Positions 5,720 through 64,000 of a DNA stretch of 64,000 nucleotides are shown one piece after another. Below the pieces are notes generated by a model. It did no database searches, was not told the origin of the DNA, and was given only the letters and a program-made list of their open reading frames with translations. This DNA is from Hormiphora californensis (taxonomy: Eukaryota; Animalia; Ctenophora): the NCBI GenBank assembly GCA_020137815.1, contig CM035353.1, positions 7,378,001-7,442,000 of the forward strand. Reading direction: 5' to 3'. The number at the start of each line of letters is the position of its first letter. The first letter of the stretch is position 1. Both the position numbers and the translations under genes were made by a program.

Positions 5720-7110
5720 TAGCATGGCAAGCTTTTCTCTAAGCATTTAAATTTACGTTGGAAATTGAAGTAGCAAGATACGGCGGAAAGTGCAAAGCGT
5801 GGGTTAGTTCCACTATTATAGGTATCTCAGGAGACTTGCTCCTTCAATTTCCAAGTAGACTGTAAATTAAATCAAATTAGTTACCACCCTTGAATTAGAC
5901 CTTAATCAAGGTCTAACTCAAGTCTGTGTCATTTTGCTAAATTAGTTTAGGTAAACGTGTGTCATTTGCCATGGTGCACCATTCACCTGACGAAAGAACA
6001 GCGTCATAAACAGCACAAAGTCTGACCCCATCCGAGCTCACTGTCGCTCAAATCAATCAAATGGATGGGCAGCCACCAGACAGCACAAAGTTAGACAAGA
6101 AGCAAGGCGGTTACTATCTGATCTGTGCACTATGCATATATGGCGGGGTTTACAAAGAACTATACTGAATTAGCTCTTAACAGACGACCAAGATCCAAGA
6201 CAAAAAAGAAACAATGAAACTTTTCTCCTGATTCTACTTCTAGAATTTACAAATTATGAATTATACAGTCGGACCCCAATTTACCGGGATGGTTCATGAA
6301 ATGAAATATATACAATTTTTGAGTCGGTCAATTTTTACAAAAGGTTCATTCACGCTGTACGAAAGGAAAGAAATTTGGTGAACAATGCAACAATTGATCA
6401 ATAATCAACTCTTTTGACCAGTGTGTAACAAAAGAGGTTTAATTTCTCAAGCTAATTCCATTTATGTAGCCTTTATACAAAGAGAAGGTAAATAATGTAC
6501 GACGGGGCTGCTCGTATCAGTGGGAGTAGACATGGTTGTGTGAGTAGTAAAGGACAAAGTTGAAGACAGCTGGATTCTTGGTAGATTGAAGATAAAGAAG
6601 TCGTAACACACGAGCAAACGTATAGATACTTGTAGAATATAAGTTCTGAGTCTTGACTCGAAAGCTAAAGTCACGGCTGGTAACTCTTTCTAGAATATCA
6701 CACACTTTCAAAGTCTCTCTCTCTAGATTTCTCTTTGCGCTACAGTAACAGGTCACGTGACCTCGGATCCTTGAGGTGAGGCGATCTCCCACTCGACTGC
6801 TGTAATGAGGGTCCTTAGAGAAGATGACACCACAGAACTGTCTCGGCGACAGATCTACTACTCTAGGCTGCTAGAGGTCTTGGAATGCTGGACTAGAAGG
6901 GATTGTAGATACTATCTCTGCGATAGATTTAGCTAATTACCCTAGAGCTGCTAGGGGTCTTGATTACGTAGAATTACCCCAGCCTGGATAGCAGCAGCTG
7001 GCTGGCTCACTCTCAATACCACAGAGATCAGAGAGAAAGGATTGTAGATACTATCTCTGCGATAGATTTAACTACCCTAGAGCTGCTAGGGGTCTTGTTC
7101 AAGTATGTAT

Positions 7111-7777
7111 ATACCCTGCTAACTTAAATAATGCGCCAGTCCCACTAGCGCGCTCTCAGTAAACAGCCAGTCCAGCGGCAGATTATTTCCCACTGGCAGG
7201 TTATTTGTTTTTAACTCCTACGTAACATTCAAAGTGTGTGTAAATGATCAGTTCTTACTAAAATACAGAGGGAACACTATGTGCAACACCTACACACTAC
7301 ATTGGAGAGAAAGAAAGAACACATTCCGTCAATTACTCTCTCTTTATCTCCCCTTTTGTCTCACTATCTCTTTCTCTGTGTTATTTGTGACATGCCCCTT
7401 ATCAGGCTATTTCTTTCACTCTCTTTCCTTAGCAACTGCTTAGTAACTGTTACCAAACAGTGTACACTCAATTGTGAGGTGTTTTTAACTATTTCTCAGT
7501 TCTCTTTGTGTGTTTTGATTAGTGTTCTCTCTCTTGTTGGTGTGTAATACTTGAAATAAACAACTAAAGCAGGGTATATAACCCATAAACTCTGACCACT
7601 GGCACGTTATAGGTTTAAACCCCTCCGCCTCTCCCTCGGCTCCGCCTCGGGATCGTCGTCGTGATTTAAACCAGTTTATCCGCCAGCGGCGGATAAACTC
7701 CAGCTAACTTCTCCCAGCGGCGCGCTGGGAGAAAGTTATCTGAAATAACGCGCCAGTGGCCAGAGTTTATGCCTCAT
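7111..7777. mobile_element. Non-autonomous DNA element nested in the 3' LTR
   Basis: Absent from the 5' LTR (empty site GTATGTATAAATC); ATATA at both ends; internal inverted repeats ACCCTGCT/AGCAGGGT and CATAAACTCTG.CCACTGGC. Confidence 0.85.
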
Positions 7778-10596
7778 ATAAATCTGAATATTCTGAATAT
7801 CGGTTAGGTGACAAACTAGTGTGAGTTTCAGACTCGCACATACTTCCCTCCCTCTGAGAGAAATGATCATTCCTGAAAAATCGAACATAACACCATGCAA
7901 ATATTCAAATAATAATCAGCTGAGCCGAGTGCCACAATGGCGCTATAAAGTAGTTGATAATCAGCTGAAAAACAACGCGATAATAAGCTGCCAAATGATC
8001 CATGCTCGCTGCACAGCTCTGATACGATCTGGGCAGGCTGCTGCCATGTGAAAACGTGGTCCAAGAATATTGATATGCATGTCATGAAAATGATGCGTAA
8101 AGACTATCTGTGGCTGCACAGATTCTCCCCCCTCTCCAGCGAGAGATAAGGGCCTAGATGCACAAAATGCGCACAAAGACGAACTGACTGAACTCACTGA
8201 ACGGATAAACCAGTACACATTAATTTTATGCTACTAAATGAACTGTATGACAACTCTTTATGGTAAAGATATTTGTATGGCTGCGTTGTTTCACTGGGGC
8301 TGTCCAGTGTTGATTCGAATACGGACGACTTGCTTGTCCAATATTCTCCAGAATAAAACTAGTAAATCATTGCTTTATTCTGTGCCAAGTAACGAGGTTT
8401 TCGGGAGCTTGCCATTTGCATCGGGTCCCAACTAATGAACCGCGACAAAACCAGTAGATATCTCCCACAAGCTGACCGTATAACGGTAGTGCGAACATTC
8501 CAGCAGATTATCTGAATCTCTCAGGTGTAGCTGCCAAACAGTAGAAACGACAAATAACGGGTCAAGTGGTTCAAGGGACGGTCTCGTCGTTGATCTTGTC
8601 AAATCAGATCTTTCTGGATCAGGAGATACAACTTACACACTTCAGCTGTGAAAGTGCCATTCAGCTTCCACAATTTACAGCAGGATCGTGGCGAGTTCTC
8701 CAATCAAGCAGGTCAATAAATTCAGGAATTCACGACTTGTAGCGGGTCGTCATCTTATCTTCGTCAAAGGGCAGAAACGGTTGATCTGGCAACGTCGAAA
8801 TCATCAGTAGAGTTCACAGTCCGGTCTGCAATCTTGTCTGCAATAAGTGAAGTTCAAAACTGCTCTGTGAAACGCAGCTGAGTGCTGCACTCAGTTCAAT
8901 AAAGTTTACACCCAGCGGTGTAATTGTATGAAAGCACACCTGCAAGGGTGGTTTTAATGGGAAGAGCGACAAGTGAGTGTGGCCGCACACAAAAAGAAGT
9001 GTCTGAATTTGTCCTGCTGGGACAGAAATTCAGGGATCTCTGTTACAAAACAATCATTAGAATCCAGCGATCCCAATACAGCAACTATACAAGTAAATAC
9101 TTAAACACTAGACCGACCAGCTGAGTCAGACACATTCAAATACCGGATCAGAGGTCGCTGAACATGATTAGGGCCTAGACAAGTAACCATTATTGTGATA
9201 CACGTGCTGATGTGTAAGTGTGACATGCAGATGTTTCAATCTCAAAATAGCGGCAGCGGTACTAAAAGTGTGTACCAATCGTACACTAGATCAACGTTAA
9301 TCAATTCATCATTAACTTGTACTTTGTTGAGTAAGGGCACCCTTGCTCGACAACTTGTACTTGGATCAGTACAGCAGGTAACTACAACTACAACTGAAGT
9401 TAAAATCGAAGTCACAGGCAGAGTGTCAAAATCGGCAGAAACCACAAAACAAACAGAAATGATTGTAAGAAATCAGAATCATTCTAGATCGGTCTAGATC
9501 AGAAAAAGGTAATTTCCAGCATGCGGCTTACGAATTTTGTAGTACGGCTGGCTCGGTGTAGCTCTTAAGAAACGGACAATCAGGTCGTGAACGTACTCCA
9601 ACTGGGAGCTTCTGCTGCAAGCTTCATCTTCTCTACGGCAGTCTTCTGTCTTCTAGCACTGGGTTTCACGACCAATAAGAGACACTTCATCTGTACTGAT
9701 CGGGACCACGTTAGCAACACACCACCATAAATCTTTGTTGTAATCGTAATCATTCGTGCTACGCCACGTACCATTAATCGGGATTTACGCTATCGGGAAT
9801 GCTGAAACATTCTGTCTGTGTTAGTAATACAAAGCAGTTGAATGGCCGGCCCAATTCAACTGGGTTAGGAGAACCAATCTTTGTAATACTAAACTGGATG
9901 ACCGGATCCGGTCCAATGACTTGGTCATTAAAAACAAACATAACAGCTACCCTGACAACCTGAGAAGGTTAAATAATGATGTGCCTAGGTCTGGTAACCT
10001 GCACCTTACCATGGGTTTAACACGGCTTACCACTGCGTCTCTATTTATGAGCTGTCAAGGGACGTCTTAGAAGCTGCGCCCACACTCTCCAGATGGAGGC
10101 TCGGAACTTGCAGAAGTCCTTCCATGACTCAGTAGCTGACTGGTCACAGGCAATGGTACGAATAGGAGGCGGTGTTGATCCAGATCCATGACCCCTCCTG
10201 TCCCAGGTCAGGGCCTACAATTGGTAGTGGTTCTCTCAATATTATCATCAAATAGGGATCCTTTCGGTATTGCTTGTCGTATTATCAATTCTGTATCTCG
10301 TTGTCAAATCCCTGTATCGGAACTAGTTCTTCTAACAAATATTCTGGTCCCTCTATCTTTCTGCTGGTTGCACTGTAAAACGACTGAGGGGTTAGTGGTT
10401 CAACAGCCCGGGGGCTGAAATGAAAGGGGTAACTAGTTAAGGTTGCCCCGGACAAACAAGGAATAAACAATAACTCAAGAAAAGGCTATACTAAACTATC
10501 AGTTCACCTGTTGCGTTGTCAGGCGAGAACTCATCATCTCCAAAAACAGTGCGTAGATTGTAGATCTCCACATTCCCGTACACACTCTAACTGTAT

Positions 10597-11607
10597 CTAG
10601 TAGTCGTGATCAGAAAAGTAGTTGTAGGCAGGTTCCTGCATCATAGTCAAATTCACCATCGAAGGCTCGAACGGTTGTGCCTCGGGATCCAATGAAGCAC
10701 CAAATTGATCAGGAAAGGGGCTTTGGTTCGGTGGTAAAATCTGCTGTCTGTCCCCAGCGGCAGAGACGTTTAAAACTCGTGCAGGCATTGCTGACACCTC
10801 TATGTTACACAATTCACTGTTCATAATTTGCCTGGATTTGTAGGACCGCTCCAACTGTTTTGCCTCCTGTACTAGTTCGTCAAAACTCATTTTATCCATA
10901 TTTTGAATCAGGCGGACACCAATAACATCAAGTAGTACTCCTGAGATAAGGGCATCCCTCATGTTAGCTTCACGTGCCTTGGTTTCTGCAGGAAACCCGA
11001 TTTCTCCAAGTTTACGAATTCGCTCCACAAACTCTTGTACTGATTCACCGGCCCTCTGCTTGGCTCCTTTGAGAGACAGACGTGCATCTAAAGGTGACAG
11101 TGTGTATGGACCGTCCAAAATCTCCGAAGCAACTGCCTTAAATTCGGCCCATGACTCAGTATCCGAATGATGTCTCCTCTCAAGCCTGCCCTGACAGTCA
11201 AGGTCCAGGTACGTCATGAATGCATCGATTGCTTCTCTGTCTGACAAGTTGGCTGCATTCTTGTATACCTCAAATCCACGGAGGTAGTCACGGATATCCA
11301 TCGCAATAGGATCAAAGGGTTGAGGCTTCCTTCCGACAATCATCTTCACAGGAACCGAAGGGTTACAAGAGGAAGAATTAGGGACGAGCTGGTCCGTTGC
11401 CTGAGAAACAGTAGAGAAAGATGCCTGAATCTCCTCGCGGTATTGGTCTAGGATCTGCATCAGTAGAACTTTATCGTCTGGTTGCACGCTGAGTTTCTTC
11501 TCCGCAAGAATCTGATCGAGCTGAGACTCACTCCACCCAGGATGCGGACCACTGGTCACAGCACCATTTTGTACGACGGGGCTGCTCGTATCAGTGGGAG
11601 TAGACAT
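10597..11607 (-). CDS. gag: Retrotransposon Gag/capsid-like protein, 336 aa (MSTPTD...)
   Basis: Intact ORF directly after the 5' LTR; capsid-like motifs YLRGFE, W.EFK, AKQRAGESVQEFVERIRKL, RDALISG. Confidence 0.85.
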   Translation of the reverse strand: MSTPTDTSSPVVQNGAVTSGPHPGWSESQLDQILAEKKLSVQPDDKVLLMQILDQYREEIQASFSTVSQATDQLVPNSSSCNPSVPVKMIVGRKPQPFDPIAMDIRDYLRGFEVYKNAANLSDREAIDAFMTYLDLDCQGRLERRHHSDTESWAEFKAVASEILDGPYTLSPLDARLSLKGAKQRAGESVQEFVERIRKLGEIGFPAETKAREANMRDALISGVLLDVIGVRLIQNMDKMSFDELVQEAKQLERSYKSRQIMNSELCNIEVSAMPARVLNVSAAGDRQQILPPNQSPFPDQFGASLDPEAQPFEPSMVNLTMMQEPAYNYFSDHDY

Positions 11608-12355
11608 GGTTGTGTGAGTAGTAAAGGACAAAGTTGAAGACAGCTGGATTCTTGGTAGATTGAAGATAAAGAAGTGTAACACACGAGCAAACGTATAGAT
11701 ACTTGTAGAGAATAAGTTCTGAGTCTTGACTCGAAAGCTAAAGTCACGGCTGGTAACTCTTTCTAGAATATCACACACTTCAAAGTCTCTCTCTCTAGAT
11801 TTCTCTTTGCGCTACAAGTAACAGGTCACGTGACCTCGGATCTTGAGGTGAGGCGATCTCCACTCGACTGCTGTAATGAGGGTCCTTAGAGAAGATGACA
11901 CCACAGAACGGTCTCGGCGACCAGATCTACTACATCTAGGCTGCTAGAGGTCTTGGAATGCTGGACTAGAAGGGATTGTAGATACTATCTCTGCGATAGC
12001 TAGATTTAGCTAATTACCCTAGAGCTGCTAGGGGTCTTGATTACGTAGAATTACCCCAGACTGGATAGCAGCGCTGGCTGGCTCACTCTCAATACCACAG
12101 AGATCGAGAGAGAAAGGATTGTAGATACTATCTCTGCGAAGATTTAATACCTAGAGCTGCTAGGGGCTTGTTCAAGTATGTATAAATCTGAATATTCTGA
12201 ATATCGGTTAGGTGACAAACTAGTGTGAGTTTCAGACTCGCACAATAAGACCTGCATATTGAATATGATATTAGGTTTTCCCAGGAATATTGTCCTATTC
12301 GTCATCTTCTCATGAACGTTAATCGACGCTGCCATCTGAAGTTGCCCAGAAACAA

Positions 12356-31174: not shown

Positions 31175-31420
31175 ACTCTCACTCTCTCTCTCACCCTCAT
31201 TGCTACTCATAACAACAATTGCAGGACGGGAGTGCATGATCTCTTTAGAAACTCCACGAATCATCAAAACAACAGATTGTGTAACAATTTTCATTTTTCA
31301 ATAGAGGCAGCATCAATCGTGTGTAAACCTGGTCTGAGAGGGAGACAAATCTAGTTCCCCTACTATTATACTGGGATTAACAAGACAAAGTTAGCTGTAT
31401 TATAACAGTTCACAAACCTA

Positions 31421-32984
31421 CAAGGTGGGCCACGGATTGTTGGTCATGGTTAGCGAGGTGGTGCGTCAAAACGGTGATAGTTGTGAGAATAAAAATTATG
31501 GGAGCACTCTGGATCAATTCCTTGGTAACTTTTTCTATAATTTTTTGTCAAAAATTCAAAAATTCATTTTTCATTCCTTCATTCATTTCTCGTTCATTCA
31601 TGATGTGAGCATCCTAATTTTCCATCATTATGCTATTTTTCTTTGGCTTGAATTTATCTTTCCAATGAGCACCATGAAAATGAAAATGAAGCACCAAGTC
31701 ACTCAGCAGTTGAGAAAATGTTCATGCATGATTTTGGCTCTTTTTGCGATTTTCAAACAGATGTATCACGGCTACCTTTCGTTCAATCTTCTTAAAACTT
31801 TGGGAAAACATTGGATAAGCAAAGATCTTTGCTCACAAGAAAAATCAAGGCCAAAGGTCAAAGTTCATTTTTCATTTTTGTTAGTTCATTCCGTTCATTC
31901 AGGAACCAACATCACTAAAGTGATGAAAAGGTTTGTGTTTTGTTTGGCCCATGTCCTGCAATGACAGAGAGGTGTAATAGCGTGTTTCCGGGCTAGTTTG
32001 TGGGTGTCCATGTGATCATGATGATATCTGACACCTTTTCTGAGCCATGATTAAGGGATTTTCTCAAACTCAAGCATGTAACTTGGTTTTTCTGCGATTA
32101 GTACCGTGCAGAAATGTTATGAGATCTCATAACAACTCAAAAATGATGATTAGCTCAATGAAATGAGTTGATTTATGATGTAATTGTTCGTTTCGTTCAA
32201 TTTGACATCGGTTTTAATCTTTTCAATCAGAAATCAACTCATTTCATTGAGCTAATCATCATTTTTGATGTGTTATGAGATCTCATAACATTGCTGCACG
32301 GTACTAATCGCAGAAAAACCAAGTTACATGCTTGAATTTGAGAAAATCCCTTAATTATGGCTCAGAAAAGGTGTCAGATATCATCATGATCACATGGACA
32401 TCCACAAACTAGCCCGGAAACATGTTATTACACCTCTCTGTCATTGCAGGACATGGGCCAAACAAAACCCAAACCTTTTCATCACTTTAGGGATGTTGGT
32501 TCCTGAATGAACGGAATGAACTAACAAAAATGAAAAATGAACTTTGACCTTTGGCCTTGATTTTTCTTGTGAGCAAAGATCTTTGCTTATCCAATGTTTT
32601 CCCAAAGTTTTAAGAAGATTGAACGAAAGGTAGCCGTGATACATCTGTTTGAAAATCGCAAAAAGAGCCAAAATCATGCATGAACATTTTCTCAACTGCT
32701 GAGTGACTTGGTGCTTCATTTTCATTTTCATGGTGCTCATTGGAAAGATAAATTCAAGCCAAAGAAAAATAGCATAATGATGGAAAATTAGGATGCTCAC
32801 ATCATGAATGAACGAGAAATGAATGAAGGAATGAAAAATGAATTTTCGAATTTTTGACAAAAAATTATGGAAAAAGTTACCAAGGAATTGATCCAGAGTG
32901 CTCCCATAATTTTTATTCTCACAACTATCACCGTTTTGACGCACCACCTCGCTAACCATGACCAACAATCCGTGGCCCACCTTG
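31421..32984. mobile_element. Foldback non-autonomous Tc1/mariner-type element with ~754-bp arms and a ~56-bp spacer
   Basis: TA|CAAGGTGGGCCA...TGGCCCACCTTG|TA; arms 31421-32174 and 32231-32984 nearly identical. Confidence 0.93.
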
Positions 32985-34215
32985 TATATAGCAGCATAGG
33001 TAGCTCTGTATAATAGTACTCGGTAAATATAAGAGGAGCCTGGAGCATAGAACAATTCAGAAGTAGGAAGGCCTTTCCGAATTCCAAGCTTTATACAGCT
33101 CGGATCGGATTTATGTGATCCCATACATACACCTATCAAGTGTCAAAATGCCCCTCAAGTTCCATTCAGTTTTCAATGTAGAGCTGATGTTAGTGTAACG
33201 GCACACGGGGGAGTTTGTGAGAAAATAACAACGCAACCAGTGATTGTTTATCTAACATCTTACATACACACATGCACCGTACCAACTTTACCATGGGATA
33301 TGATACATGCACTGTACCGTGGGGCAATGGACATGTTATACGGTCGCTTGTAGTGGGAAAAAAGTAATGGAAAACGGAGATACAGTAAGACGACGCACAA
33401 CCGTGACCAATCAGGGCGCTATAAACACATGCACTTTTGCCGCGCGTTATGCAACGTGCGCGTCCCGTTACTGTATTTCCATTACGGTAATACGACTACA
33501 AGCAGCTCTGTTATACATGGGATTGTCTCTATCATCAGGGGAACCAGGGGAATGGGCCGATGGGGAGGGGGGGGGGGGTAATTGAATTACCTAGGACAGC
33601 TGCAGGGTTTGATGATACAGCTGGCATTGCAGAGTGGTGATATCGAGGATTTTCACATCTTGTGATCTTTCATGACTTCTTGCGGCGTGGGTCCTGTGGA
33701 GATAGTTTGATAATTCTAAACAGCTATACAAGATCAAGATGATCTAATACTATACAGTATACACACCGTTTTTTAGAGCACATCCATTTTGAGATTCAGA
33801 TTGTCCAGATTGTTAGGTATATAACTCATCAGTATGACAGTTTGGAAACCTTGTATCATGGTACCTGTGTCCTGGTTGAAGTGAGGAAATCTGGAGCTCA
33901 TGGGACATTGCTAAAACAAGCTGTAAGGATTAACATTGTTCTGTCTGGTCAAACACGTAACATCAAAAAGCTATAAATAACGACGGTTATAAAAGTTTTC
34001 AACACCAAATCAAGGCTATAAAGGATAATAAAAAGTACGCTAACAGAAATAATAACTTAATCAATTTACATATATTCGTGTGCTTGATGGTTGAATTATC
34101 AAAATCAGCCCATAAAAATCATTAATTCCTCGTGCTTCAAAGTTCAACGGATTATCCAAATAATTATGGGATTATCTTGATATGTAGTTGACAAAAAGTT
34201 CAGCTAGAACTATAT

Positions 34216-41775: not shown

Positions 41776-42854
41776 CTACTTCAAGATCTCTTCAAACTCG
41801 TTCAGTAAGTCATCCTCATCCTCGAATAGTAGGGAGACATCATCACGTTTAGTATGAGAGGTGGGGGCTGCATCTAGAGCAGCGTTCAACAGTTCCAACT
41901 CCCGGTCAAAGTCGTCTAGTTCAGTGTTGGTGGTACTGTAGGAAATGGGATGTTAGATTTGGGGTTTTAGAGTGGTTATGTAGGAAATGGGATGTTAGAT
42001 TTGGGGTTTTAGAGTGGTTATGTAGGAGTGGGATGATAGATATTGGGGATTAGAGGATTATAGGTTAGAGAAAACTGAAAAGCCAAAAAAAGTGTAGATA
42101 ATGATACGTACCTTTGAGGGGTAGGAACAGAGGTTGTAGTTTGTGGAATGGGATTGCAGACAGCAGATTTAGTAGCTCCAGACACCATTGTGGTGGTCGG
42201 TGCTGTATTGGGTTGTTGAGTGGGCTTCACTGCTTTCTTTATCCTGATCTTCTTGACAACCCTCGGTTTAACTACAGCTCGTTTATTGGTAGTTGGTTTA
42301 GGGGCAGGTGCCACTTTGTTTTCTGGTTTTGTTATGGGTTGTGTGACAGGTGGTGGAGCGCTATTTGCCCGAACTGACTTTAGATCCACGACATGTTTTG
42401 TTCTTATTACAGTGGTGTTGGTTTTGGGTTCCTCTTGTTGTGGTTTACTAGCGAATGGGTTCAATCCCTTCACCTTGGGTTCCTCTTGCTGCGGTTTACT
42501 AGCGAATGGGTTTAGTCCCTTCACCTAGAAGGGGGTGGGGGTTAAATTTAGGTGCCGGCAGGCACCTCCGACCCGAAGAAAACAGAAAAAACGAAAAAAA
42601 AAATTTTTGCCCCTGCACCAAATCCAAAAAGTGACGGCCCTATTTAGGTGCCGGCAGGCACCTCCGACCCGAAGAAAACAGAAAAAACGAAAGAAAAAAA
42701 AAATTTTGCCCCTGCACCAAATCCAAAAAGCCGGCCCTATTTAGGTGCCGGCAGGCACCTCCGACCCGAAGAAAACAGAAAAAAACGAAGAAAAAAAAAT
42801 TTTTGCCCCTGCACCAAATCCAAAAAGCCGGCCCTATATATACAAACGTAGGTC

Positions 42855-42887
<33 letters not shown>

Positions 42888-44393
42888 GGCAAATTTCAGG
42901 CAGCGATTGTGGCCACATTTTTTGAGATATCGACCTGAAATTTTGTAGGCGTGTTCTAGTAGTATAACTACGTGTCATAACGTGGCCGGATTTTTGATTT
43001 TTTGCCTAATTAATTAATTATAGGTAATTAAAAAGTAGCCCCTGCACCGTGCCCCTGAGCATGGGGTGTTCTGTCCCCTGGGCATTGCCCCTGAGCCGAA
43101 ATTATCTCCCGATCTGCTTGAAATATCGACTTGAAACTTTGTAGGAATGCTCTTCAAGCATAAAAAATGATCTACAAAAAGTTAGAATAGTCAAAATTAA
43201 GTAATCAATGAGTTATAGGCATGCAAAAATGGACATTTCTGGTGCCCCTGAATTTTGCCCCCGAGCATTTGAAAAAACTGCCCCTGGGCAATTTTAAAAT
43301 TCAAATTGTGGCCACACTGTTTGACATATCGATCTAAAACTTTGTAGGCATGTTCTAGTGGTATAACTAAGAGTCACCACGGAGCCTGATTTTTGATTTT
43401 TTACTTAATTAATTAATTATAAGCAATTAAAATTTTAAAATTGCCCTCGCACTAACAAAAGTGGCCCAGGGGCACCTGAGCCGCAATTATCTCCCGATCT
43501 GCTTGAAATATCGACTTGAAACTTTGTAGGAATGCTCTTCAAGCATATAGAAAGGTCTACAAAAGGTGGGAATATTCAAAATTAATTATCCAATTAATTA
43601 TAAGCAATTAAAAAATGGACATTTTTCTGGTGCCCCTGAGCATTGCCCCTGAGCATTTGAAAATATTTTCCGTTCTGCTATAAATAACGGCCTAAAATTT
43701 TGCAGTAATGTAGTTCAAGCATATAGAAAGGTCTACAAAAAATGGGAATATTCAAAATTGATTATCAAATTAATTATAAGCAATTAAAAAAATGTGCAGT
43801 GGCAGTGCAGGGGCAAAAAAATTAAGCATATATATATGGCGGGAAAATATTTTGGCGGGAAACCGAAAAAGCCCAATAAGCCAAGAACGGGGTGGGGCCA
43901 AGGTCTGGCCCACTAGCTTTTGATCACCTCATCGAGCCCGATCGAACGCGACCAATGTCGACCTCCCACGACGACCTAAACCCCTAATCCCACGTGGTGC
44001 CAGCCAACCGCCAGCCAAACGGAAAAATCTAGTGATCCTCTATCAGCTGGTATCAAAATCTAAGCTCTAAGTGACCAGGAACTGGCATTATTAGTGCTAA
44101 TTGGCGATAACGTCATAAATCACATAATTACGACTAATTAGTGAACCGGGGGTGGTAGAGACCTGTGGGATGGTACTTTGGACTTTTTATAGAGTCCCTA
44201 ATCATATCAGAAAGTCAAATTTAAAATTCCAGACCCAACTTCCCACAACCGACCCTACTATGTATAATAAACAGGCCGCTGCGCATCAAAAAATATTTTA
44301 ACAGCTTGAAGGTTGCTGTTTCGACGAATCTCCCAACTTCGGGTCGGACGAGGGGAAGCTTGCCTTTTGCGATCATATATACAAACGTAGGTC

Positions 44394-44425
<32 letters not shown>

Positions 44426-45934
44426 TGGGGGGGGGGTGGCAAATTTCAGGCAGCGATTGTGGCCACATTTTTTGAGATATCGACCTGAAATTTTGTAGGC
44501 GTGTTCTAGTAGTATAACTACGTGTCATAACGTGGCCGGATTTTTGATTTTTTGCCTAATTAATTAATTATAGGTAATTAAAAAGTAGCCCCTGCACCGT
44601 GCCCCTGAGCATGGGGTGTTCTGTCCCCTGGGCATTGCCCCTGAGCCGAAATTATCTCCCGATCTGCTTGAAATATCGACTTGAAACTTTGTAGGAATGC
44701 TCTTCAAGCATAAAAAATGATCTACAAAAAGTTAGAATAGTCAAAATTAAGTAATCAATGAGTTATAGGCATGCAAAAATGGACATTTCTGGTGCCCCTG
44801 AATTTTGCCCCCGAGCATTTGAAAAAACTGCCCCTGGGCAATTTTAAAATTCAAATTGTGGCCACACTGTTTGACATATCGATCTAAAACTTTGTAGGCA
44901 TGTTCTAGTGGTATAACTAAGAGTCACCACGGAGCCTGATTTTTGATTTTTTACTTAATTAATTAATTATAAGCAATTAAAATTTTAAAATTGCCCTCGC
45001 ACTAACAAAAGTGGCCCAGGGGCACCTGAGTCGCAATTATCTCCCGATCTGCTTGAAATATCGACTTGAAACTTTGTAGGAATGCTCTTCAAGCATATAG
45101 AAAGGTCTACAAAAGGTGGGAATATTCAAAATTAAGTAATCAATGAGTTATAAGCAATTAAAAAATGGACATTTTTATGGTGCCCCTGAGCATTGCCCCT
45201 GAGCATTTGAAAATATTTTCCGTTCTGCTATAAATAACGGCCTAAAATTTTGCAGTAATGTAGTTCAAGCATATAGAAAGGTCTACAAAAAGTGGGAATA
45301 TTCAAAATTGATTATCAAATTAATTATAAGCAATTAAAAAAATGTGCAGTGGCAGTGCAGGGGCAAAAAAAATAAAGCATATATATGGCGGGAAAATATT
45401 TTGGCGGGAAACCGAAAAAGCCCAATAAGCCAAGAACGGGGTGGGGCCAAGGTCTGGCCCACTAGCTTTTGATCACCTCATCGAGCCCGATCGAACGCGA
45501 TGTCGACCTCCCACGACAACCTAAACCCCTAATCCCACGTGGTGCCAGCCAACCGCCAGCCAAACGGAAAAATCTAGTGATCCTCTATCAGCTGGTATCA
45601 AAATCTAAGCTCTAAGTGACCAGGAACTGGCATTATTAGTGCTAATTGGCGATAACGTCATAAATCACATAATTACGACTAATTAGTGAACCGGGGGTGG
45701 TAGAGACCTGTGGGATGGTACTTTGGACTTTTTATAGAGTCCCTAATCATATCAGAAAGTCAAATTTAAAATTCCAAACCCAACTTCCCACAACCGACCC
45801 TACTATAATAAACAGGCCGCCGCGCATCAAAAAATATTTTAACAGCCTGAAGGTTGCTGTTTCGACGAATCTCCCAACTTCGGGTCGGACGAGGGGAAGC
45901 TTGCCTTTTGCGATCATATATACAAACGTAGGTC

Positions 45935-45967
<33 letters not shown>

Positions 45968-47566
45968 GGGCAAATTTCAGGCAGCGATTGTGGCCACATT
46001 TTTTGAGATATCGACCTGAAATTTTGTAGGCGTGTTCTAGTAGTATAACTACGTGTCATAACGTGGCCGGATTTTTGATTTTTTGCCTAATTAATTAATT
46101 ATAGGTAATTAAAAAGTAGCCCCTGCACCGTGCCCCTGAGCATGGGGTGTTCTGTCCCCTGGGCATTGCCCCTGAGCCGAAATTATCTCCCGATCTGCTT
46201 GAAATATCGACTTGAAACTTTGTAGGAATGCTCTTCAAGCATAAAAAATGATCTACAAAAAGTTAGAATAGTCAAAATTAAGTAATCAATGAGTTATAGG
46301 CATGCAAAAATGGACATTTCTGGTGCCCCTGAATTTTGCCCCCGAGCATTTGAAAAAACTGCCCCTGGGCAATTTTAAAATTCAAATTGTGGCCACACTG
46401 TTTGACATATCGATCTAAAACTTTGTAGGTATGTTCTAGTGGTATAACTAAGAGTCACCACGGAGCCTGATTTTTGATTTTTTACTTAATTAATTAATTA
46501 TAAGCAATTAAAATTTTAAAATTGCCCTCGCACTAACAAAAGTGGCCCAGGGGCACCTGAGTCGCAATTATCTCCCGATCTGCTTGAAATATCGACTTGA
46601 AACTTTGTAGGAATGCTCTTCAAGCATATAGAAAGGTCTACAAAAGGTGGGAATATTCAAAATTAAGTAATCAATGAGTTATAAGCAATTAAAAAATGGA
46701 CATTTTTATGGTGCCCCTGAGCATTGCCCCTGAGCATTTGAAAATATTTTCCGTTCTGCTATAAATATCGACTTGAAACTTTGTAGGAATGCTCTTCAAG
46801 CATATAGAAAGGTCTACAAAAAGTGGGAATATTCAAAATTAACTATCCAATTAATTATAAGCAATTAAAAAAATGTGCAGTGGCAGTGCAGGGGCAAAAA
46901 AATAAAGCATATATATGGCGGGAAAATATTTTGGCGGGAAACCGAAAAAGCCCAATAAGCCAAGAACGGGGTGGGGCCAAGGTCTGGCCCACTAGCTTTT
47001 GATCACCTCATCGAGCCCGATCGAACGCGACCAATGTCGACCTCCCACGACGACCTAAACCCCTAATCCCATGTGGTGCCAGCCAACCGCCAGCCAAACG
47101 GAAAAATCTAGTGATCCTCTATCAGCTGGTATCAAAATCTAAGCTCTAAGTGACCAGGAACTGGCATTATTAGTGCTAATTGGCGATAACGTCATAAATC
47201 ACATAATTACGACTAATTAGTGAACCGGGGGTGGTAGAGACCTGTGGGATGGTACTTTGGACTTTTTATAGAGTCCCTAATCATATCAGAAAGTCAAATT
47301 TAAAATTCCAGACCCAACTTCCCACAACCGACCCTACTATAATAAACAGGCCGCCGCGCATCAAAAAATATTTTAACAGCCTGAAGGTTGCTGTTTCGAC
47401 AAATCTCCCAACTTCGGGTCGGACGAGGGGAAGCTTGCCTTTTGCGATCTAATTTAGGTGCCGGCAGGCACCTCCGACCCGAAGAAAACAGAAAAAACGA
47501 AAAAAACAAAAATTTTGCCCCTGCACCAAATCCAAAAAGCCGGCCCTATATATACAAACGTAGGTC

Positions 47567-47599
<33 letters not shown>

Positions 47600-50240
47600 G
47601 GGCAAATTTCAGGCAGCGATTGTGGCCACATTTTTTGAGATATCGACCTGAAATTTTGTAGGCGTGTTCTAGTAGTATAACTACGTGTCATAACGTGGCC
47701 GGATTTTTGATTTTTTGCCTAATTAATTAATTATAGGTAATTAAAAAGTAGCCCCTGCACCGTGCCCCTGAGCATGGGGTGTTCTGTCCCCTGGGCATTG
47801 CCCCTGAGCCGAAATTATCTCCCGATCTGCTTGAAATATCGACTTGAAACTTTGTAGGAATGCTCTTCAAGCATAAAAAATGATCTACAAAAAGTTAGAA
47901 TAGTCAAAATTAAGTAATCAATGAGTTATAGGCATGCAAAAATGGACATTTCTGGTGCCCCTGAATTTTGCCCCCGAGCATTTGAAAAAACTGCCCCTGG
48001 GCAATTTTAAAATTCAAACTGTGGCCACACTGTTTGACATATCGATCTAAAACTTTGTAGGCATGTTCTAGTGGTATAACTAAGAGTCACCACGGAGCCT
48101 GATTTTTGATTTTTTACTTAACTAATTAATTATAAGCAATTAAAATTTTAAAATTGCCCCCGCACTAACAAAAGTGGCCCAGGGGCACCTGAGTCGCAAT
48201 TATCTCCCGATCTGCTTGAAATATCGACTTGAAACTTTGTAGGAATGCTCTTCAAGCATATAGAAAGGTCTACAAAAGGTGGGAATATTCAAAATTAAGT
48301 AATCAATGAGTTATAAGCAATTAAAAAATGGACATTTTTATGGTGCCCCTGAGCATTGCCCCTGAGCATTTGAAAATATTTTCCGTTCTGCTATAAATAT
48401 CGACTTGAAACTTTGTAGGAATGCTCTTCAAGCATATAGAAAGGTCTACAAAAAGTGGGAATATTCAAAATTGATTATCAAATTAATTATAAGCAATTAA
48501 AAAAATGTGCAGTGGCAGTGCAGGGGCAAAAAATAAAGCATATATATGGCGGGAAAATATTTTGGCGGGAAACCGAAAAAGCCCAATAAGCCAAGAACGG
48601 GGTGGGGCCAAGGTCTGGCCCACTAGCTTTTGATCACCTCATCGAGCCCGATCGAACGCGACCAATGTCGACCTCCCACGACGACCTAAACCCCTAATCC
48701 CACGTGGTGCCAGCCAACCGCCAGCCAAACGGAAAAATCTAGTGATCCTCTATCAGCTGGTATCAAAATCTAAGCTCTAAGTGACCAGGAACTGGCATTA
48801 TTAGTGCTAATTGGCGATAACGTCATAAATTACATAATTACGACTAATTAGTGAACCGGGGGTGGTAGAGACCTGTGGGATGGTACTTTGGACTTTTTAT
48901 AGAGTCCCTAATCATATCAGAAAGTCAAATTTAAAATTCCAGACCCAACTTCCCACAACCGACCCTACTATAATAAACAGGCCGCCGCGCATCAAAAAAT
49001 ATTTTAACAGCCTGAAGGTTGCTGTTTCGACGAATCTCCCAACTTCGGGTCGGACGAGGGGAAGCTTGCCTTTTGCGATCATAGTTTAACATCCAGAGGA
49101 CATACCTTGACGGGTAATTCATTGAACTTATTTAAAGTGTGGTTTTGGAGCAGTAGAGGGGGTGAATAGTGAGACTTTACTTACCTGTTTACTGGTATTT
49201 GCAGACTGCTGCACAGCACGTAGAGCGGCACTAAACACCTGTTGTGCTGGTGTCTCCGAATTGTACACTATTTTTCGTTTAGGTTTGCGTTTTATAACAG
49301 CCTCCTCAGCAGTTTTCTCTGTTGTATCTTGTTTTGTGTCTTCAGTCGCTTCAGGTGGGTTGGTAGTGGTAGTGGCGTCCTGGGAAGGATGGTTGGGTGT
49401 TAGTAACAAACTACACTTTGTGTTAACAATGATAGAGTATCAACTCCCCAGACCCTAGTACCAACTCCTTGTTATGTTCTAACTAGGTCTAGCTAGGCAA
49501 CCAACTCCCAGTACTAACCTCAAAGCAGAACTCATCACACTTTTCAGGGGTCTTCAAACACTCTGCTTCCTCTTGTTCTGGCGTCCCAGGGGTCGATAAA
49601 TCATCTGAAAATAGGGAATTATGATGATGAATGTGAGCCATTTCCTGCTGCTTCCTAATTTAGCATCACATGACAGCCCTCACCATCATGACTGATATAC
49701 AATGCGCGGCGCGCTGTCTTTCAAATGCTAACAACAGTTGGATTAGCAAAGAGAGCAGCGAGCATTTCGAGCAATCGCCACACAGAAAGATGAGAATTTG
49801 TTCATTCAGGAATCTGTTGAAAATAACCAAACAACACGGAACAACCTAACAAAGTTAATACACACCTTCCCCTCCCTCCCCAGCAGCTTGACGTTCCAGC
49901 TTCCTCAACTTTTTAGATTCCCTCCGATCCCGTCTCTCCTGTTTTTCCTGTCTTCGCAGCTGTTTTAACCTTCTACGTTCCATCTTTAACAGCTTCTTTT
50001 CGTTCGACTGTGCAAGGGAATGTGAAGTTTTAGTATTGGAAAATCCAGTACAATTCTTCCCTTAATTAGTGGTCATAACTGAATCACTTTTGAAGAAAGA
50101 ATTTAATTTATTCCATTTTCGGAGCGCCTACCTTTTTATTGTTGATGGTGAATGTTAGACTGGGTTCAGCTGACGGTTCAGATAGGACCTCCCTTTCATC
50201 TTCATCATCTTCCCCGCTGTACCTGTTGGTAGTCTGGTTA

Positions 50241-60100: not shown

Positions 60101-61684
60101 TTTTTCCAAAATATCAGAATGATTTTTTTCATAAGTGAACACAGTCAGTGCTTGAGAAAATGACATCATTCTTACAGTTGGACGAGGGAGACATTAGATA
60201 GCAAAACGAGTGAAAATTACACATTTCATTATGTTACAGACATGACTCAGAGTGACAGTTAAATCTTGTTTTCACAGCGCTGGCCAGGAGGTGATCATTA
60301 AAACTTTTTTCATATTCAGTAAAAATTATGCATTGATATATTTCAACTGGCTCACCCCGGATTTCCCAAGTTATCTTTGTTATCGGAGTGTAGGGCCAAA
60401 ATATTGATTCTGCTTTATGCTTCCTAGTAATTTGAGTACCTCTGTTATTTGAGTGAGGTGTGACATTATTACCTCATTAGAAATAGCCTTGAACTGGGGG
60501 AGGAATTCACGGAGTTGTTCCAAGTTAGCATCAACATATGAGAGGCTGGCCACTGAAGTCTGAGGGAAATCGAGATGGTTGGTGAGGTGAATAATTGAAT
60601 TGAACATTATACCAATGATGTGGGTTATGCGTCATGTTAAACAACAGTCTGCAGTATACATCACTTACCAGCTGATCGGAATTGAGCTCTTTACCGCCCT
60701 TCTTCTGCTGTAAAAGGTCCAGAATCTTGGTCTGAAAGGGGTAATTGAATTAGGATATTAGAGAATTTAACAAACCCACGGCAATTTCATGGCAGTTATC
60801 AGATGTTCTGATCTTAAGAAGTCTACTCCAGTGGTGGCCCCAGCCTGGGGTGGTGGGGGGGTGGCCACCCCCCCAAAACTTTTCAAACAAGGGTTGTTGG
60901 GGGTGGTAAAATAGCTTTAAAATGTGTTCTAAACTGCTTTAAATTGATCAAAATCTAAAATTTTCCGGGGGCTTCGCCCCTAATCCACCCCAAGGGCTGA
61001 AAATCTTTAAAATATTGTTCTAAATTGCTTAAAATTGATCAAAAACTAAAATTTTCCGGGGGCTTCGCCCCTTACCCACGCCAGGGGCTGAATATCATTA
61101 AAAAAGGTTTCTAAAAGGGCTGAAAATTGCCCCCGCCAAGGGCTGAAAATCGATAAAATATTGTTCTATATTGCTTTAATTCATCAAAATTTCCGGGGGC
61201 TTCGCCCCTTGTGACTGAAACTCGTTGAAAAAGTTTTCTAAAAGGGCTGATAATTGTTTAAAAAAGTTGTTCTAAATTGCTTAAAATTCATCAAAATCTA
61301 AAATTTTCCGGGGGCTTCGCCCCCTAGCCCCCACCAAGGGCTCTGCCCCTGGACCCCGTCGGGGGGCTGCGCCCCCCGAACCCCCTGCCGCAGCTCCCTC
61401 GGCGCCGCTTCGCGGCACCTCGGTCGCTAGGTTTGGAGTTGAAGTGTGGCCTTCGGCCACACCACCCCCCCAAAAAATCCATGCTGGGGCCACCCCTGGT
61501 CTACTCGAGCGACTGTAAACTATCCAATACTGCTCTGTATGAAAAGTATTAGGTTTGGCGGATAGATCTAGCGATTTACCTTCCTTTTCTCAAGATTTCT
61601 CATCTTCTTTTCCACAACTTGAGAGAACCTATCGAGGCCTTCGGCCATTTCGAGGCCTTTGGCCGGGTTGGTTGCAGATGGCAT
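54499..61684 (-). CDS. CAPRIN1: Caprin (caprin-1-like stress-granule RNA-binding protein), ~12 exons, one apparent 1-bp frameshift near 55432
   Basis: MPSATN...VVEKKMRNLEKRK-TKILD...KELNSDQL (HR1 region); NFMHDSQLD (compare caprin-1 FIQDS G3BP-binding motif); DPAV; RGG-rich C-terminus. Confidence 0.9.
55991..56330. repeat. 34-bp minisatellite, 10 copies, spanning a caprin splice acceptor
   Basis: GGGTAATCTGGGAGCGGGGAAATAGTTGGGGAAT direct array. Confidence 0.95.
60829..61498. mobile_element. hAT-type non-autonomous element in caprin intron 1
   Basis: TIRs CAGTGGTGGCCCCAGC/GCTGGGGCCACCCCTG; perfect 8-bp TSD GTCTACTC; internal TTTCCGGGGGCTTCGCCCC subrepeats. Confidence 0.92.
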
Positions 61685-62248
61685 ACGTAGAAAGGTTTCA
61701 AAAGCTCGCCCAGTGAGTTTACTGTGTACTGAAAAAAAATCCCACTGTTTCGAGGCTGATTTTTCATTTTTTTTGATATTCTGAAACTCCGAGTTGCGAC
61801 GCAGAATCGATAAACTTCTGCGCGTTACGTCTTATGCGCAGTTGTTTACTTTTTTAGAAGACGCGGCTGAGCTGATTTGAATTGAAAAAGTTCCCCAAAC
61901 TGAGTTGAAGCACTGAAAATTTTCCTCTCTTGTTCGTTTAAGATCGGGACTGATCATTCACGTGTGTAGGCCATGATTAAAGTGTCATTGTAACTTTTAT
62001 GACTTCTATTTTGTTAATCATTGGTTTTCGTAACTGGAAAGATGGCCCCCAGCAAGTCTTCGGCCGGGGCCCGGTGCAGAAGTTCCGGTCAGGGGTCGTT
62101 GAATCCCTCCACAAGGGTCCAGGGGTGTAGGAGTTAAGCAGGGTCCGCAAGCTGGGTCCAGGTGCTGCAAGATCATCTTTTGTTTCGTAGCTTTTCATAA
62201 AAGTTGCTCTTTCCAGTTTCCTAATTCATCTTTAGTCTTTTTCTGGGA

Positions 62249-62288
62249 TTCAAACTTTTCAACACTACTTTAAACAAATTAATTTGAG
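62249..62288 (+). other. Genomic copy of the ctenophore trans-spliced leader (SL) exon, with no downstream GT donor
   Basis: TTCAAACTTTTCAACACTACTTTAAACAAATTAATTTGAG matches the pleurobrachiid SL as I recall it; followed by ATATG rather than GT. Confidence 0.8.
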
Positions 62289-63530
62289 ATATGTCCTCAG
62301 GATGTTGAGACCGCCCGTAGGGGCAGGCAGAAGTTATGACGGAGAAACTTAATACCTCTGATGCAGATGTCGATCCACTGGAATGCTGGGATTTGTCGAT
62401 GATGGAAAAACTTCGTTGTGCAGTAGAGAACGTTTTTTATATCAAGAACGGGCTCAAACAACCAAGTGAACAACAGGTTGATGGAGTATTGTCCAAGTTA
62501 TTGGATTCTAGTTTGTATGATGATCCTGAGCAGTATATGGAGGACGCACTGCCGAAAGACTCCGAAATGAGAAAGTATAATGTTGATCGTTTCATGGCTT
62601 TCACCGAGAACCTCTCTCGTCATATTTTTCGGATAGTGAGAGAAATAGGACCAGTTATGAAGGAGAAACGTCTGTATGCAACTGCCCGAATGAAAGAACG
62701 CATGGAACTAGTGGAATGTAATCAGAAGCTGAAGGAGGTACAAGAAGAGCTTGGCACTTTTAAGGAAGAAATCGACAAACATCGGGTATCAAGGATTGAA
62801 CTGCAAGAGAAGCTGATTGAAGCACAAAATACTTTGATTGAAGTACAAGGTCGGAAACTTAGTTCAGTGTCAGAGTCTGTTCAGAAGCATTTGCAGGGCT
62901 ACTCCAAGGTGCTTGTACAGAATTGCTCTGCAGCTATTGCACCATCCCGCCTCCAAGCAGCATTGAAGAAAGCGACTGTACCCCATCCAAGTACAACCGC
63001 GGAAGAAGCAACTCTTGATCGCAAGTTGAATTTGGTTATATTTGGGCTGCCAGAAACTACGGCAAGGGCTACTGAGCATGAAGTTCAGGATATCTTTGGA
63101 GAGCTCAATGAAAAACCAGTCATATCTTCTACAAAGCGTATTGGCGAAAAGACTGATAACCGACCGAGACCAGTAATTGTTACACTTGAAAGGAGGGAAA
63201 CTTTGTTACAACTTCTAAGAAAAGCAAAACAGCTCCGAGATTCAGAGAAATTCTCCTCGGTGTTTCTCTCCCCCGACCTAACACCGGAGGAGCAGCGAGA
63301 GCGGAAAACTCTCGTTGATACAGTGAAAGGACTGAGGCGAGACAATCCGAATGGACGATACTGGGTTAGCAGGGGGGTAATTAAATGTGGCTGACCTGCT
63401 ACATGTAATTTGTACTCTAAAGAGACTTCAAAAGGAACCTTATGACTATCAATTTAGCCCACAAAAAGGGGCAGTATATGTTGTATTTTATCCAATGTAT
63501 ACATTTTAGATTTAATAATAATAATAATAA
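62251..63530 (+). mobile_element. ORF1-only non-LTR retroelement (SL + 5' UTR + ORF1 + 3' UTR + (TAA)6)
   Basis: 9-bp TSD TCTGGGATT (62242-62250, 63531-63539); (TAA)6 tail at 63513-63530; no ORF2. Confidence 0.85.
62336..63394 (+). CDS. LINE ORF1p-like protein, 352 aa (coiled coil + RRM + CTD; CR1/L2/L1 type)
   Basis: Intronless intact ORF; RKLNLVIFGLPE, KRIGEK...RPRPVIVTL, LLRKAKQLR, VFLSPDLTPEEQRERKTL. Confidence 0.88.
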   Translation: MTEKLNTSDADVDPLECWDLSMMEKLRCAVENVFYIKNGLKQPSEQQVDGVLSKLLDSSLYDDPEQYMEDALPKDSEMRKYNVDRFMAFTENLSRHIFRIVREIGPVMKEKRLYATARMKERMELVECNQKLKEVQEELGTFKEEIDKHRVSRIELQEKLIEAQNTLIEVQGRKLSSVSESVQKHLQGYSKVLVQNCSAAIAPSRLQAALKKATVPHPSTTAEEATLDRKLNLVIFGLPETTARATEHEVQDIFGELNEKPVISSTKRIGEKTDNRPRPVIVTLERRETLLQLLRKAKQLRDSEKFSSVFLSPDLTPEEQRERKTLVDTVKGLRRDNPNGRYWVSRGVIKCG

Positions 63531-64000
63531 TCTGGGATTTCCTCCAGTTCCACTGGCTGGTTAACACTAATTGTGATTTGCGTTTTCCGATATTTAAAAA
63601 CAGTGTGTTATGTATCTGGTCTCTAGAGATGGTCTCCCATGGATGGTCTCCCATCAGCAAAAAAGTTCAGAGGTAGTGTCCAAACAAAGACTGAGGCAAT
63701 TGGGAGGGCTGAGGGGTCAATTATATAGTTATCGCCTCTTGTCTCGCCGTTTGACTAAATAACTTTATTATTGTGGAACTTCACTGGCCATATAATCTGT
63801 TATTTTCGATCTATAATTTTTAGTTTTGTTGAATTAATTCTGCGACTAGTGTATTGTTTATAATGAACTCTCAATATCTCATTTGAGATCATCTATACAT
63901 AATTCTGCAACATAATTAGCCATTCACTGATGTGTGTGTCTCTGAATTGATGCCCAAATTGTATCACAGGTAGGATACTGTGTCCAGTCATATTTGCGTC

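Follow-up and report, generated by a model that had tools for sequence, protein, structure and literature searches.

How a retroelement that encodes only an ORF1 protein, and whose genomic copy begins with a spliced leader (SL) of its host, comes by its 5' end is the question raised by positions 62242-63539 of a 64-kb stretch of DNA from Hormiphora californensis, the whole of which is referred to below as the window. It is a standing problem how a non-LTR retrotransposon can pass through an RNA stage with its promoter kept and its 5' end complete. The reading favored here, to which a probability of roughly 0.55 is assigned, is that the element belongs to a multicopy ORF1-only family whose copies begin with the host leader and which renews itself in a cycle of trans-splicing and dependence on a partner LINE. 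That the RNA from which the window copy was made had been SL-trans-spliced is, taken by itself, considered very probable.

The features of the element are collected in Table 1. The anatomy proposed in the initial annotation (a 9-bp duplication, a 40-nt leader, a 47-nt UTR, a 352-aa ORF and a (TAA)6 tail) proved exact in every part, and two upstream ATGs inside the 5' UTR, absent from that annotation, can be added to it. The direct repeat TCTGGGATT, which abuts the leader on one side and (TAA)6 on the other, has a single further copy elsewhere in the window (24149, minus strand); at any one given place this 9-mer is expected by chance with a probability of 3.6e-6. Because the initial TT of the leader copy also ends the duplication, the insert proper is counted from 62251. 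Read-contig depth stays at the single-copy level to about 62171 and climbs only at the leader; on these grounds an element start near 62019, which the initial annotation had named as a finding that would speak against its own reading, was rejected.

Table 1. Features of the leader-headed element and its immediate context in the window
Feature	Position	Strand	Remark
First coding exon of the divergent host gene (context, outside the element)	61580..61684	-	presumably caprin-like, by resemblance
Left target-site duplication, 9 bp	62242..62250	+	microhomology of its last 2 nt with the leader copy
Spliced-leader copy, no GT donor 3' of it	62249..62288	+	last 40 of the 44 published nt; 38 nt beyond the duplication
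5' UTR, 47 nt	62289..62335	+	sequence reading
Upstream ORF, 5 codons, stop just 5' of the hairpin motif	62291..62308	+	sequence reading
Conserved motif with 4-bp G-C hairpin (62313-62324)	62310..62326	+	20-21 nt past the leader in 3/3 DNA loci
ORF1p, 352 aa	62336..63394	+	intact ORF; predicted fold
3' UTR, 118 nt	63395..63512	+	sequence reading
3' hairpin, 16 nt, identical in L002	63457..63472	+	conservation
(TAA)6 tail	63513..63530	+	the 5 letters before it are the same as before the (TAA)8 of L002
Right target-site duplication	63531..63539	+	second copy of the 9-bp direct repeat

Only 118 nt separate ORF1 from the tail in the window element, and about 90 nt in the relative L002 described below: there is no ORF2. 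The initial annotation, which had seen no reverse transcriptase or endonuclease ORF, agrees with a tblastn search of the 64-kb window with two LINE ORF2 queries, which gave no match, and neither a partner LINE nor an autonomous LINE with a common 3' end was found within the same 64 kb. The hairpin in the 3' UTR is a candidate recognition signal for the reverse transcriptase of such a partner. Folding z-scores of the UTR pieces range from -2.1 to +0.5, so the hairpins of the element rest on conservation, not on stability, and the G-C hairpin of the 5' UTR consists of four invariant pairs, with no covariation among the window element, L001 and L002.

The neighboring gene is divergent, as had been annotated; its ATG lies 558 bp from the target-site duplication, not about 570 bp, and its identification as caprin, which is presumed from resemblance, was accompanied by no Pfam match to caprin on three exon pieces. 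A MITE-like insertion with terminal inverted repeats of about 20 bp is located in its first intron (approximately 60828-61501). Further repeats of the window are two 615-bp direct repeats (96.6%) flanking a gag-like frame of 404 codons (minus strand), an LTR-element-like arrangement at 6496-12184 in which the frame has a weak Retrotrans_gag match (E 0.056), a tandem array of non-coding 1.5-1.6-kb units about 98% alike and with no Rfam match (42739-49088), and a near-perfect inverted repeat of 1.57 kb (31419-32986).

The identity of the leader, which the initial annotation had given as that of a pleurobrachiid ctenophore, is confirmed by the leader printed for H. californensis in PMC8527503, whose final 40 of 44 nt are the same as 62249-62288. 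One match lies in the window, as against none in 100 shuffles. Directly 3' of the leader stand AT in the window, TT in L002 and CA in L001, never GT; since AT and not GT follows it, as had been annotated, 62249-62288 is not an SL RNA gene, and Rfam returned no match in the window. The leader has been counted 718 times in the H. californensis genome, and these matches were treated as spliced-leader loci (PMC8527503). In genomic run X4, 26 contigs that leave the leader differ from one another beyond it (agreement 0.41; GT is not the majority) and 27 reach it from sequences that are likewise dissimilar, which suggests that many leader copies in genomic DNA are not genes and makes it likely that part of the 718 matches are retroposed. 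Across the runs, 18-27 contigs per run leave the leader at 62288 into unlike sequences, the majority letters being CT, not GT. The leader is single, not tandem, in both DNA loci that have an upstream flank (window and L002). Contigs of X4 and X5 with 18 nt of the leader (62249-62266) and GT, followed by a second leader start, at depths of 343 and 660, represent a multicopy partial tandem leader.

The assignment of the 352-aa ORF to LINE ORF1 proteins is supported by a predicted structure, built on a 22-row alignment (pLDDT 71), in which N-terminal helices are followed by a long coiled coil, an RRM and a small C-terminal domain. The top 11 Foldseek rows for this model are human LINE-1 ORF1p (best E 1.6e-6), which bears out the description of the ORF as ORF1p-like. 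By sequence, searches against Pfam and PDB gave no ORF1 match, only coiled-coil noise or nothing. At E up to 0.001 the wider family comprises 8509 representatives; most of the nearest Atlas clusters are from Ctenophora, the named homologues are gene models of Pleurobrachia bachei, and viral and prokaryote collections yielded no matches to either the leader or ORF1. Longer ORF1 fusions were sought and one was found, the P. bachei gene model P0058, in which an ORF1 piece (77%) is joined to PSF3 exons and which is therefore taken as another ORF1 copy at the front of a housekeeping gene, comparable to the window element with its distance of 558 bp to a start codon.

The number of copies was estimated from read contigs of runs X4-X6 and X11, taken as DNA; the label is itself a guess, accepted since X4-X6 extend over intergenic flanks and X11 over intron bases. 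In X4, a contig of 378 letters (61900-62277, depth 36) joins the flank to the leader with no differences, single contigs on the element reach 576 (5' half) and 677 (3' half), and a pair of diverged contigs on the ORF reaches 613 and 523. The element body is covered about 16-fold more deeply than the single-haplotype flank, with the two halves equally deep, and a 517-letter record of X11 (127 letters aligned) shows the 3' end of the element running into a different flank. These data support a multicopy family that is mostly full length; its closest subfamily has roughly 16-19 haplotype copies, a figure derived from depth and so not a true copy number. The multicopy ORF1-only family of the initial annotation is further borne out by 16 clusters of relatives (41-97% identity, on contigs of 0.9-2 kb). 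At six sites of the ORF every aligned X4 contig differs from the window copy, four of the six changing an amino acid.

An empty-site joint is listed in none of the four runs, two joints having been dropped at the tail repeat in this test. Runs X5 and X6 each have one record on 63538-63673 that carries a further 64 and 90 letters to the left; if the extra letters of the X5 record are upstream flank, it overlaps the neighboring record by 33 letters, close to the 30 expected. These records give a hint of an empty allele and are compatible with a filled site as well. In X11, which is labelled as another organism, the element is identical at 187 of 188 positions in 63146-63333 while most flanks cannot be aligned at 85%; strong constraint, recent sharing and a matter of labelling are three explanations between which this near-identity does not decide.

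The same observations bear on the simplest explanation of the locus, namely a one-off processed copy of a host or domesticated ORF1-like gene, or an artefact of cDNA assembly. The leader is present on at least 56% of host mRNAs, as judged by Iso-Seq reads (PMC8527503), so any retrocopy could carry it, and in the window element it is joined at an exon boundary, as in SL-tagged processed retrogenes. Against this stand the X4 genomic contig that crosses from flank to leader without a difference, the multicopy depth of the element body, and the recurrence of a (TAA)n tail and the 3' hairpin in L002, a relative only 36% identical, and the explanation is regarded as highly improbable. A processed copy of the mRNA of an intron-bearing host gene is not borne out, as the body belongs to a LINE ORF1p family and ends in (TAA)n, not poly(A).

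Among 18 metagenome loci, the leader was found in two, L001 and L002. In L002, 461 bp of flank are followed by the leader (38/38, from the same base as the window insert), ORF1, the hairpin shared with the window and (TAA)8; its target-site duplication is not clear, the longest shared word being 5 nt. Of the two marks of target-primed reverse transcription, a tail and a target-site duplication, the window element shows both, and L002 clearly shows the tail. L001, which begins inside the leader (26/26) and ends at the stop codon, may be a transcript. ORF1 identity among the window element, L001 and L002 is 36-50%, and the leader is 100% identical; third codon positions are 27-34% identical, near random, the four-fold sites identical in the three pairs number 22/50, 10/38 and 4/30, and of the 21 nt behind the leader five agree in each pair. 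In all three, short upstream ORFs stop at the conserved G-C hairpin motif.

In a tree of 49 C-terminal ORF1 pieces, among which L009-L015, L017 and L018 are not represented, the window element, L001 and L002 are placed in one clade of 23 rows (support 100/98) that excludes the leader-less L003-L008. No ORF2 was seen behind ORF1 in L003-L008 either; elements that have ORF1 alone thus extend beyond those that bear the leader. A distant ORF1 relative, L016 (31%), is followed by an endonuclease-RT ORF. Of the leader-less relatives, L003 (28-1298; 32%) is apparently a complete ORF1-only element, flanked on either side by a 9-bp repeat and tailed by (ATTTC)n, and L003-L008 have in common a loose 5' motif with TTATC at its end; as a side reading, these loci may represent a broader ORF1-only group whose hosts are other marine organisms.

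Ctenophores have several leaders, and the proteins of the family suggest that more than one is used. Three of 233 proteins (P0055, P0077 and P0209) have a second leader-like N-terminal extension of 13-14 residues, with three different upstream sequences. The extension starts with QT or FQT, as does the published leader in one frame, and stops at the junction. In both P0209 and P0077, the latter a P. bachei gene model, one and the same UTR follows the extension; in P0055 it is followed by the UTR translation found in L001 behind the published leader. Judged from these peptides, the extension is probably a second leader type used at fixed junctions. Its resemblance to the published leader is weak (27/39, a score that 17 null windows out of 1500 and, in a second set, 22 out of 800 also reached; at least 20 differences in 39 when ungapped). 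A search for it in unrelated proteins found none (one match among two candidates), and as a DNA pattern it was found neither in the window nor in any of the 18 loci. The spacing of 20-21 nt between leader and motif is not universal, as the P0059/P0209 subfamily has just 21 nt from leader to ATG. The ORF1 of P0055 is 77% identical to that of L001 and 44% identical to that of P0077: close elements differ in their leader and distant ones share it, and the leader therefore does not track element descent. With L001 and L002 bearing the published leader and P0055, P0077 and P0209 the second, independent relatives are headed at a fixed junction, in line with the initial annotation, and this argues against a one-off template switch.

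These relationships are also what distinguishes recurrent trans-splicing from a head captured as DNA. A leader gained rarely, by splicing or template switching, could have been inherited under selection together with an internal promoter, as has been argued for the heads of SINEU. Such a capture is consistent with the conserved motif at a fixed distance past the leader and with the common first leader base of the window element and L002; the snRNA heads of SINEU are a precedent (PMC4494074), and a promoter role has been proposed for dinoflagellate leader relicts (PMC6050394). An inherited head is, however, expected to drift with the body, and the leader is identical to that of the present host across about 2 substitutions per site of ORF1; moreover, one subfamily carries two leader types, one type occurs on two subfamilies, and the junction is in every case the exact 3' end of the leader exon, whereas variable junctions are expected of template switching. 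If trans-splicing precedes reverse transcription, an exact exon-end junction, leader identity despite saturation and two leaders across the tree are to be expected. The captured head is accordingly rated as improbable.

The locus is best read as a member of a HAL1/HeT-A-like clade of non-autonomous LINEs copied from SL-trans-spliced RNA, and the favored cycle can be laid out in five steps. A flanking host promoter would transcribe a copy, the flank and the old leader forming an outron. The terminal AG of the old leader would then act as acceptor, a new capped leader replacing the old one, and the junction would for that reason never move. ORF1p, whose fold is predicted as above, would be made and would package the RNA. 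A partner ORF2p would bind the 3' hairpin and (TAA)n and prime at a nick. The last step can be seen in the window copy: the cDNA ends a few bases short of the leader 5' end, with 2-nt microhomology and a 9-bp duplication, and a further round of trans-splicing would put back the few bases lost from the leader.

Two points about the acceptor weigh against the cycle: a 3' splice site reading GAG is unusual, and AGs that look better suited lie unused a short way past the leader. One of these, the AG at 62300, had been put forward in the initial annotation as a site of trans-splicing; this was not borne out, as the leader is joined 12 nt upstream, and L001 and L002 keep a similar AG behind theirs. 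A promoter internal to the element, for which the conserved motif 20-21 nt past the leader is a candidate, would likewise count against the cycle.

An arrangement that does without a GAG acceptor is that of a few master sources with an ordinary outron and an acceptor at the junction, of which the capped copies are dead ends. It accounts for a junction that does not move, for leaders of more than one type and for the downstream AGs being passed over, and the six ORF sites at which the window copy differs from all X4 contigs, four of them non-silent, fit a decaying dead copy (or an assembly error). The many subfamilies with a conserved protein, saturated third positions and a common 3' signal would nevertheless require sources founded serially from retroposed RNA, and no loose end 5' of the UTR appears among the 24 listed of 216 loose-end rows, a weak test. 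Outron-bearing masters are considered unlikely, though less so than a captured head; they include a trans-splicing step, as does the self-renewing cycle.

An extension of the self-renewing cycle to a whole ctenophore retroelement clade that gave up its own promoter and 5' end, with many of the 718 loci being retroelement heads, is advanced tentatively, at somewhat less than even odds. In such a clade, copies would be transcribed by host read-through and the carried leader would be the acceptor, so that any SL RNA at hand would repair 5' truncation in each cycle.

Several known systems share part of this organization. NeSL, SLACS, CRE and CZAR are autonomous elements inserting into SL RNA genes, and like them the window locus has leader sequence beside an element end; this type was rejected because the duplicated bases come from unique flank beyond the leader and both an SL intron and ORF2 are lacking. 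HAL1 in the strict sense derives from a mammalian L1-clade element and was rejected as well, since the nearest named relatives of the window element are ctenophore proteins and its tail is (TAA)n, not poly(A). HAL1, HeT-A and Ag-Sponge have been described as non-autonomous LINEs in which ORF1 is present (PMC5786205, PMC5753468); the window element resembles them in encoding ORF1p alone, in its LINE-type 3' end and in its need of a partner for reverse transcriptase, and differs in that they keep the 5' end of the parent LINE, the place of which is taken here by a host spliced leader. R2 and other LINEs have 5' self-cleaving ribozymes that act after host co-transcription (PMC5786205), and the likeness lies in co-transcription and a subsequent processing event by which the 5' end is set; R2, an autonomous and site-specific element, uses ribozyme cleavage, whereas the window element would use trans-splicing.

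Dinoflagellate retrogenes tagged with DinoSL arise by retroposition of trans-spliced mRNA in repeated cycles (PMC6050394), and their genomic copies, too, begin with the host leader. Those, however, are host genes whose relict leaders are decaying and sometimes tandem, whereas the present case is a selfish ORF1p family in an animal, with its own tail and 3' hairpin, one intact leader and a fixed junction. The crocodilian SINEU are snRNA-headed retroposons for which transcription from the flank has been proposed and whose heads are ascribed to template switching (PMC4494074); a small-RNA-derived head without a known internal promoter, recurrently added, is common to both, but SINEU are non-coding, and the body considered here encodes ORF1p and its head stops precisely where the leader exon does. 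SL splicing of TE transcripts is common in Hydra, where it affects about 30% of the Iso-Seq reads from TEs (PMC12220107), which provides another case of TE RNA using the host trans-splicing machinery; the accessible portion of that report deals with leaders on reads and not with genomic copies that carry a leader at their head or with a family characterized by such copies. No leader-capped retroelement family was found in the full-text literature searched, a body of text to which most subscription journals and the Repbase reports do not belong, and the accessible portions of PMC2566580, PMC10282587 and bioRxiv 10.64898/2026.05.21.726589 hold no information on such elements. ORF1-only LINEs, leader-tagged retrogenes and snRNA-headed retroposons are thus known already, and what is added here is likely an unusual way of making a 5' end.

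The solutions to the 5'-end problem described so far are internal promoters and co-transcription combined with ribozyme cleavage; host trans-splicing would, if true, be the third. For genome annotation, it follows that matches to a leader may include retroposed heads and not just SL RNA genes. Leader-capped copies would, in addition, allow retrotransposition events in ctenophores to be dated and counted, as DinoSL relicts do in dinoflagellates.
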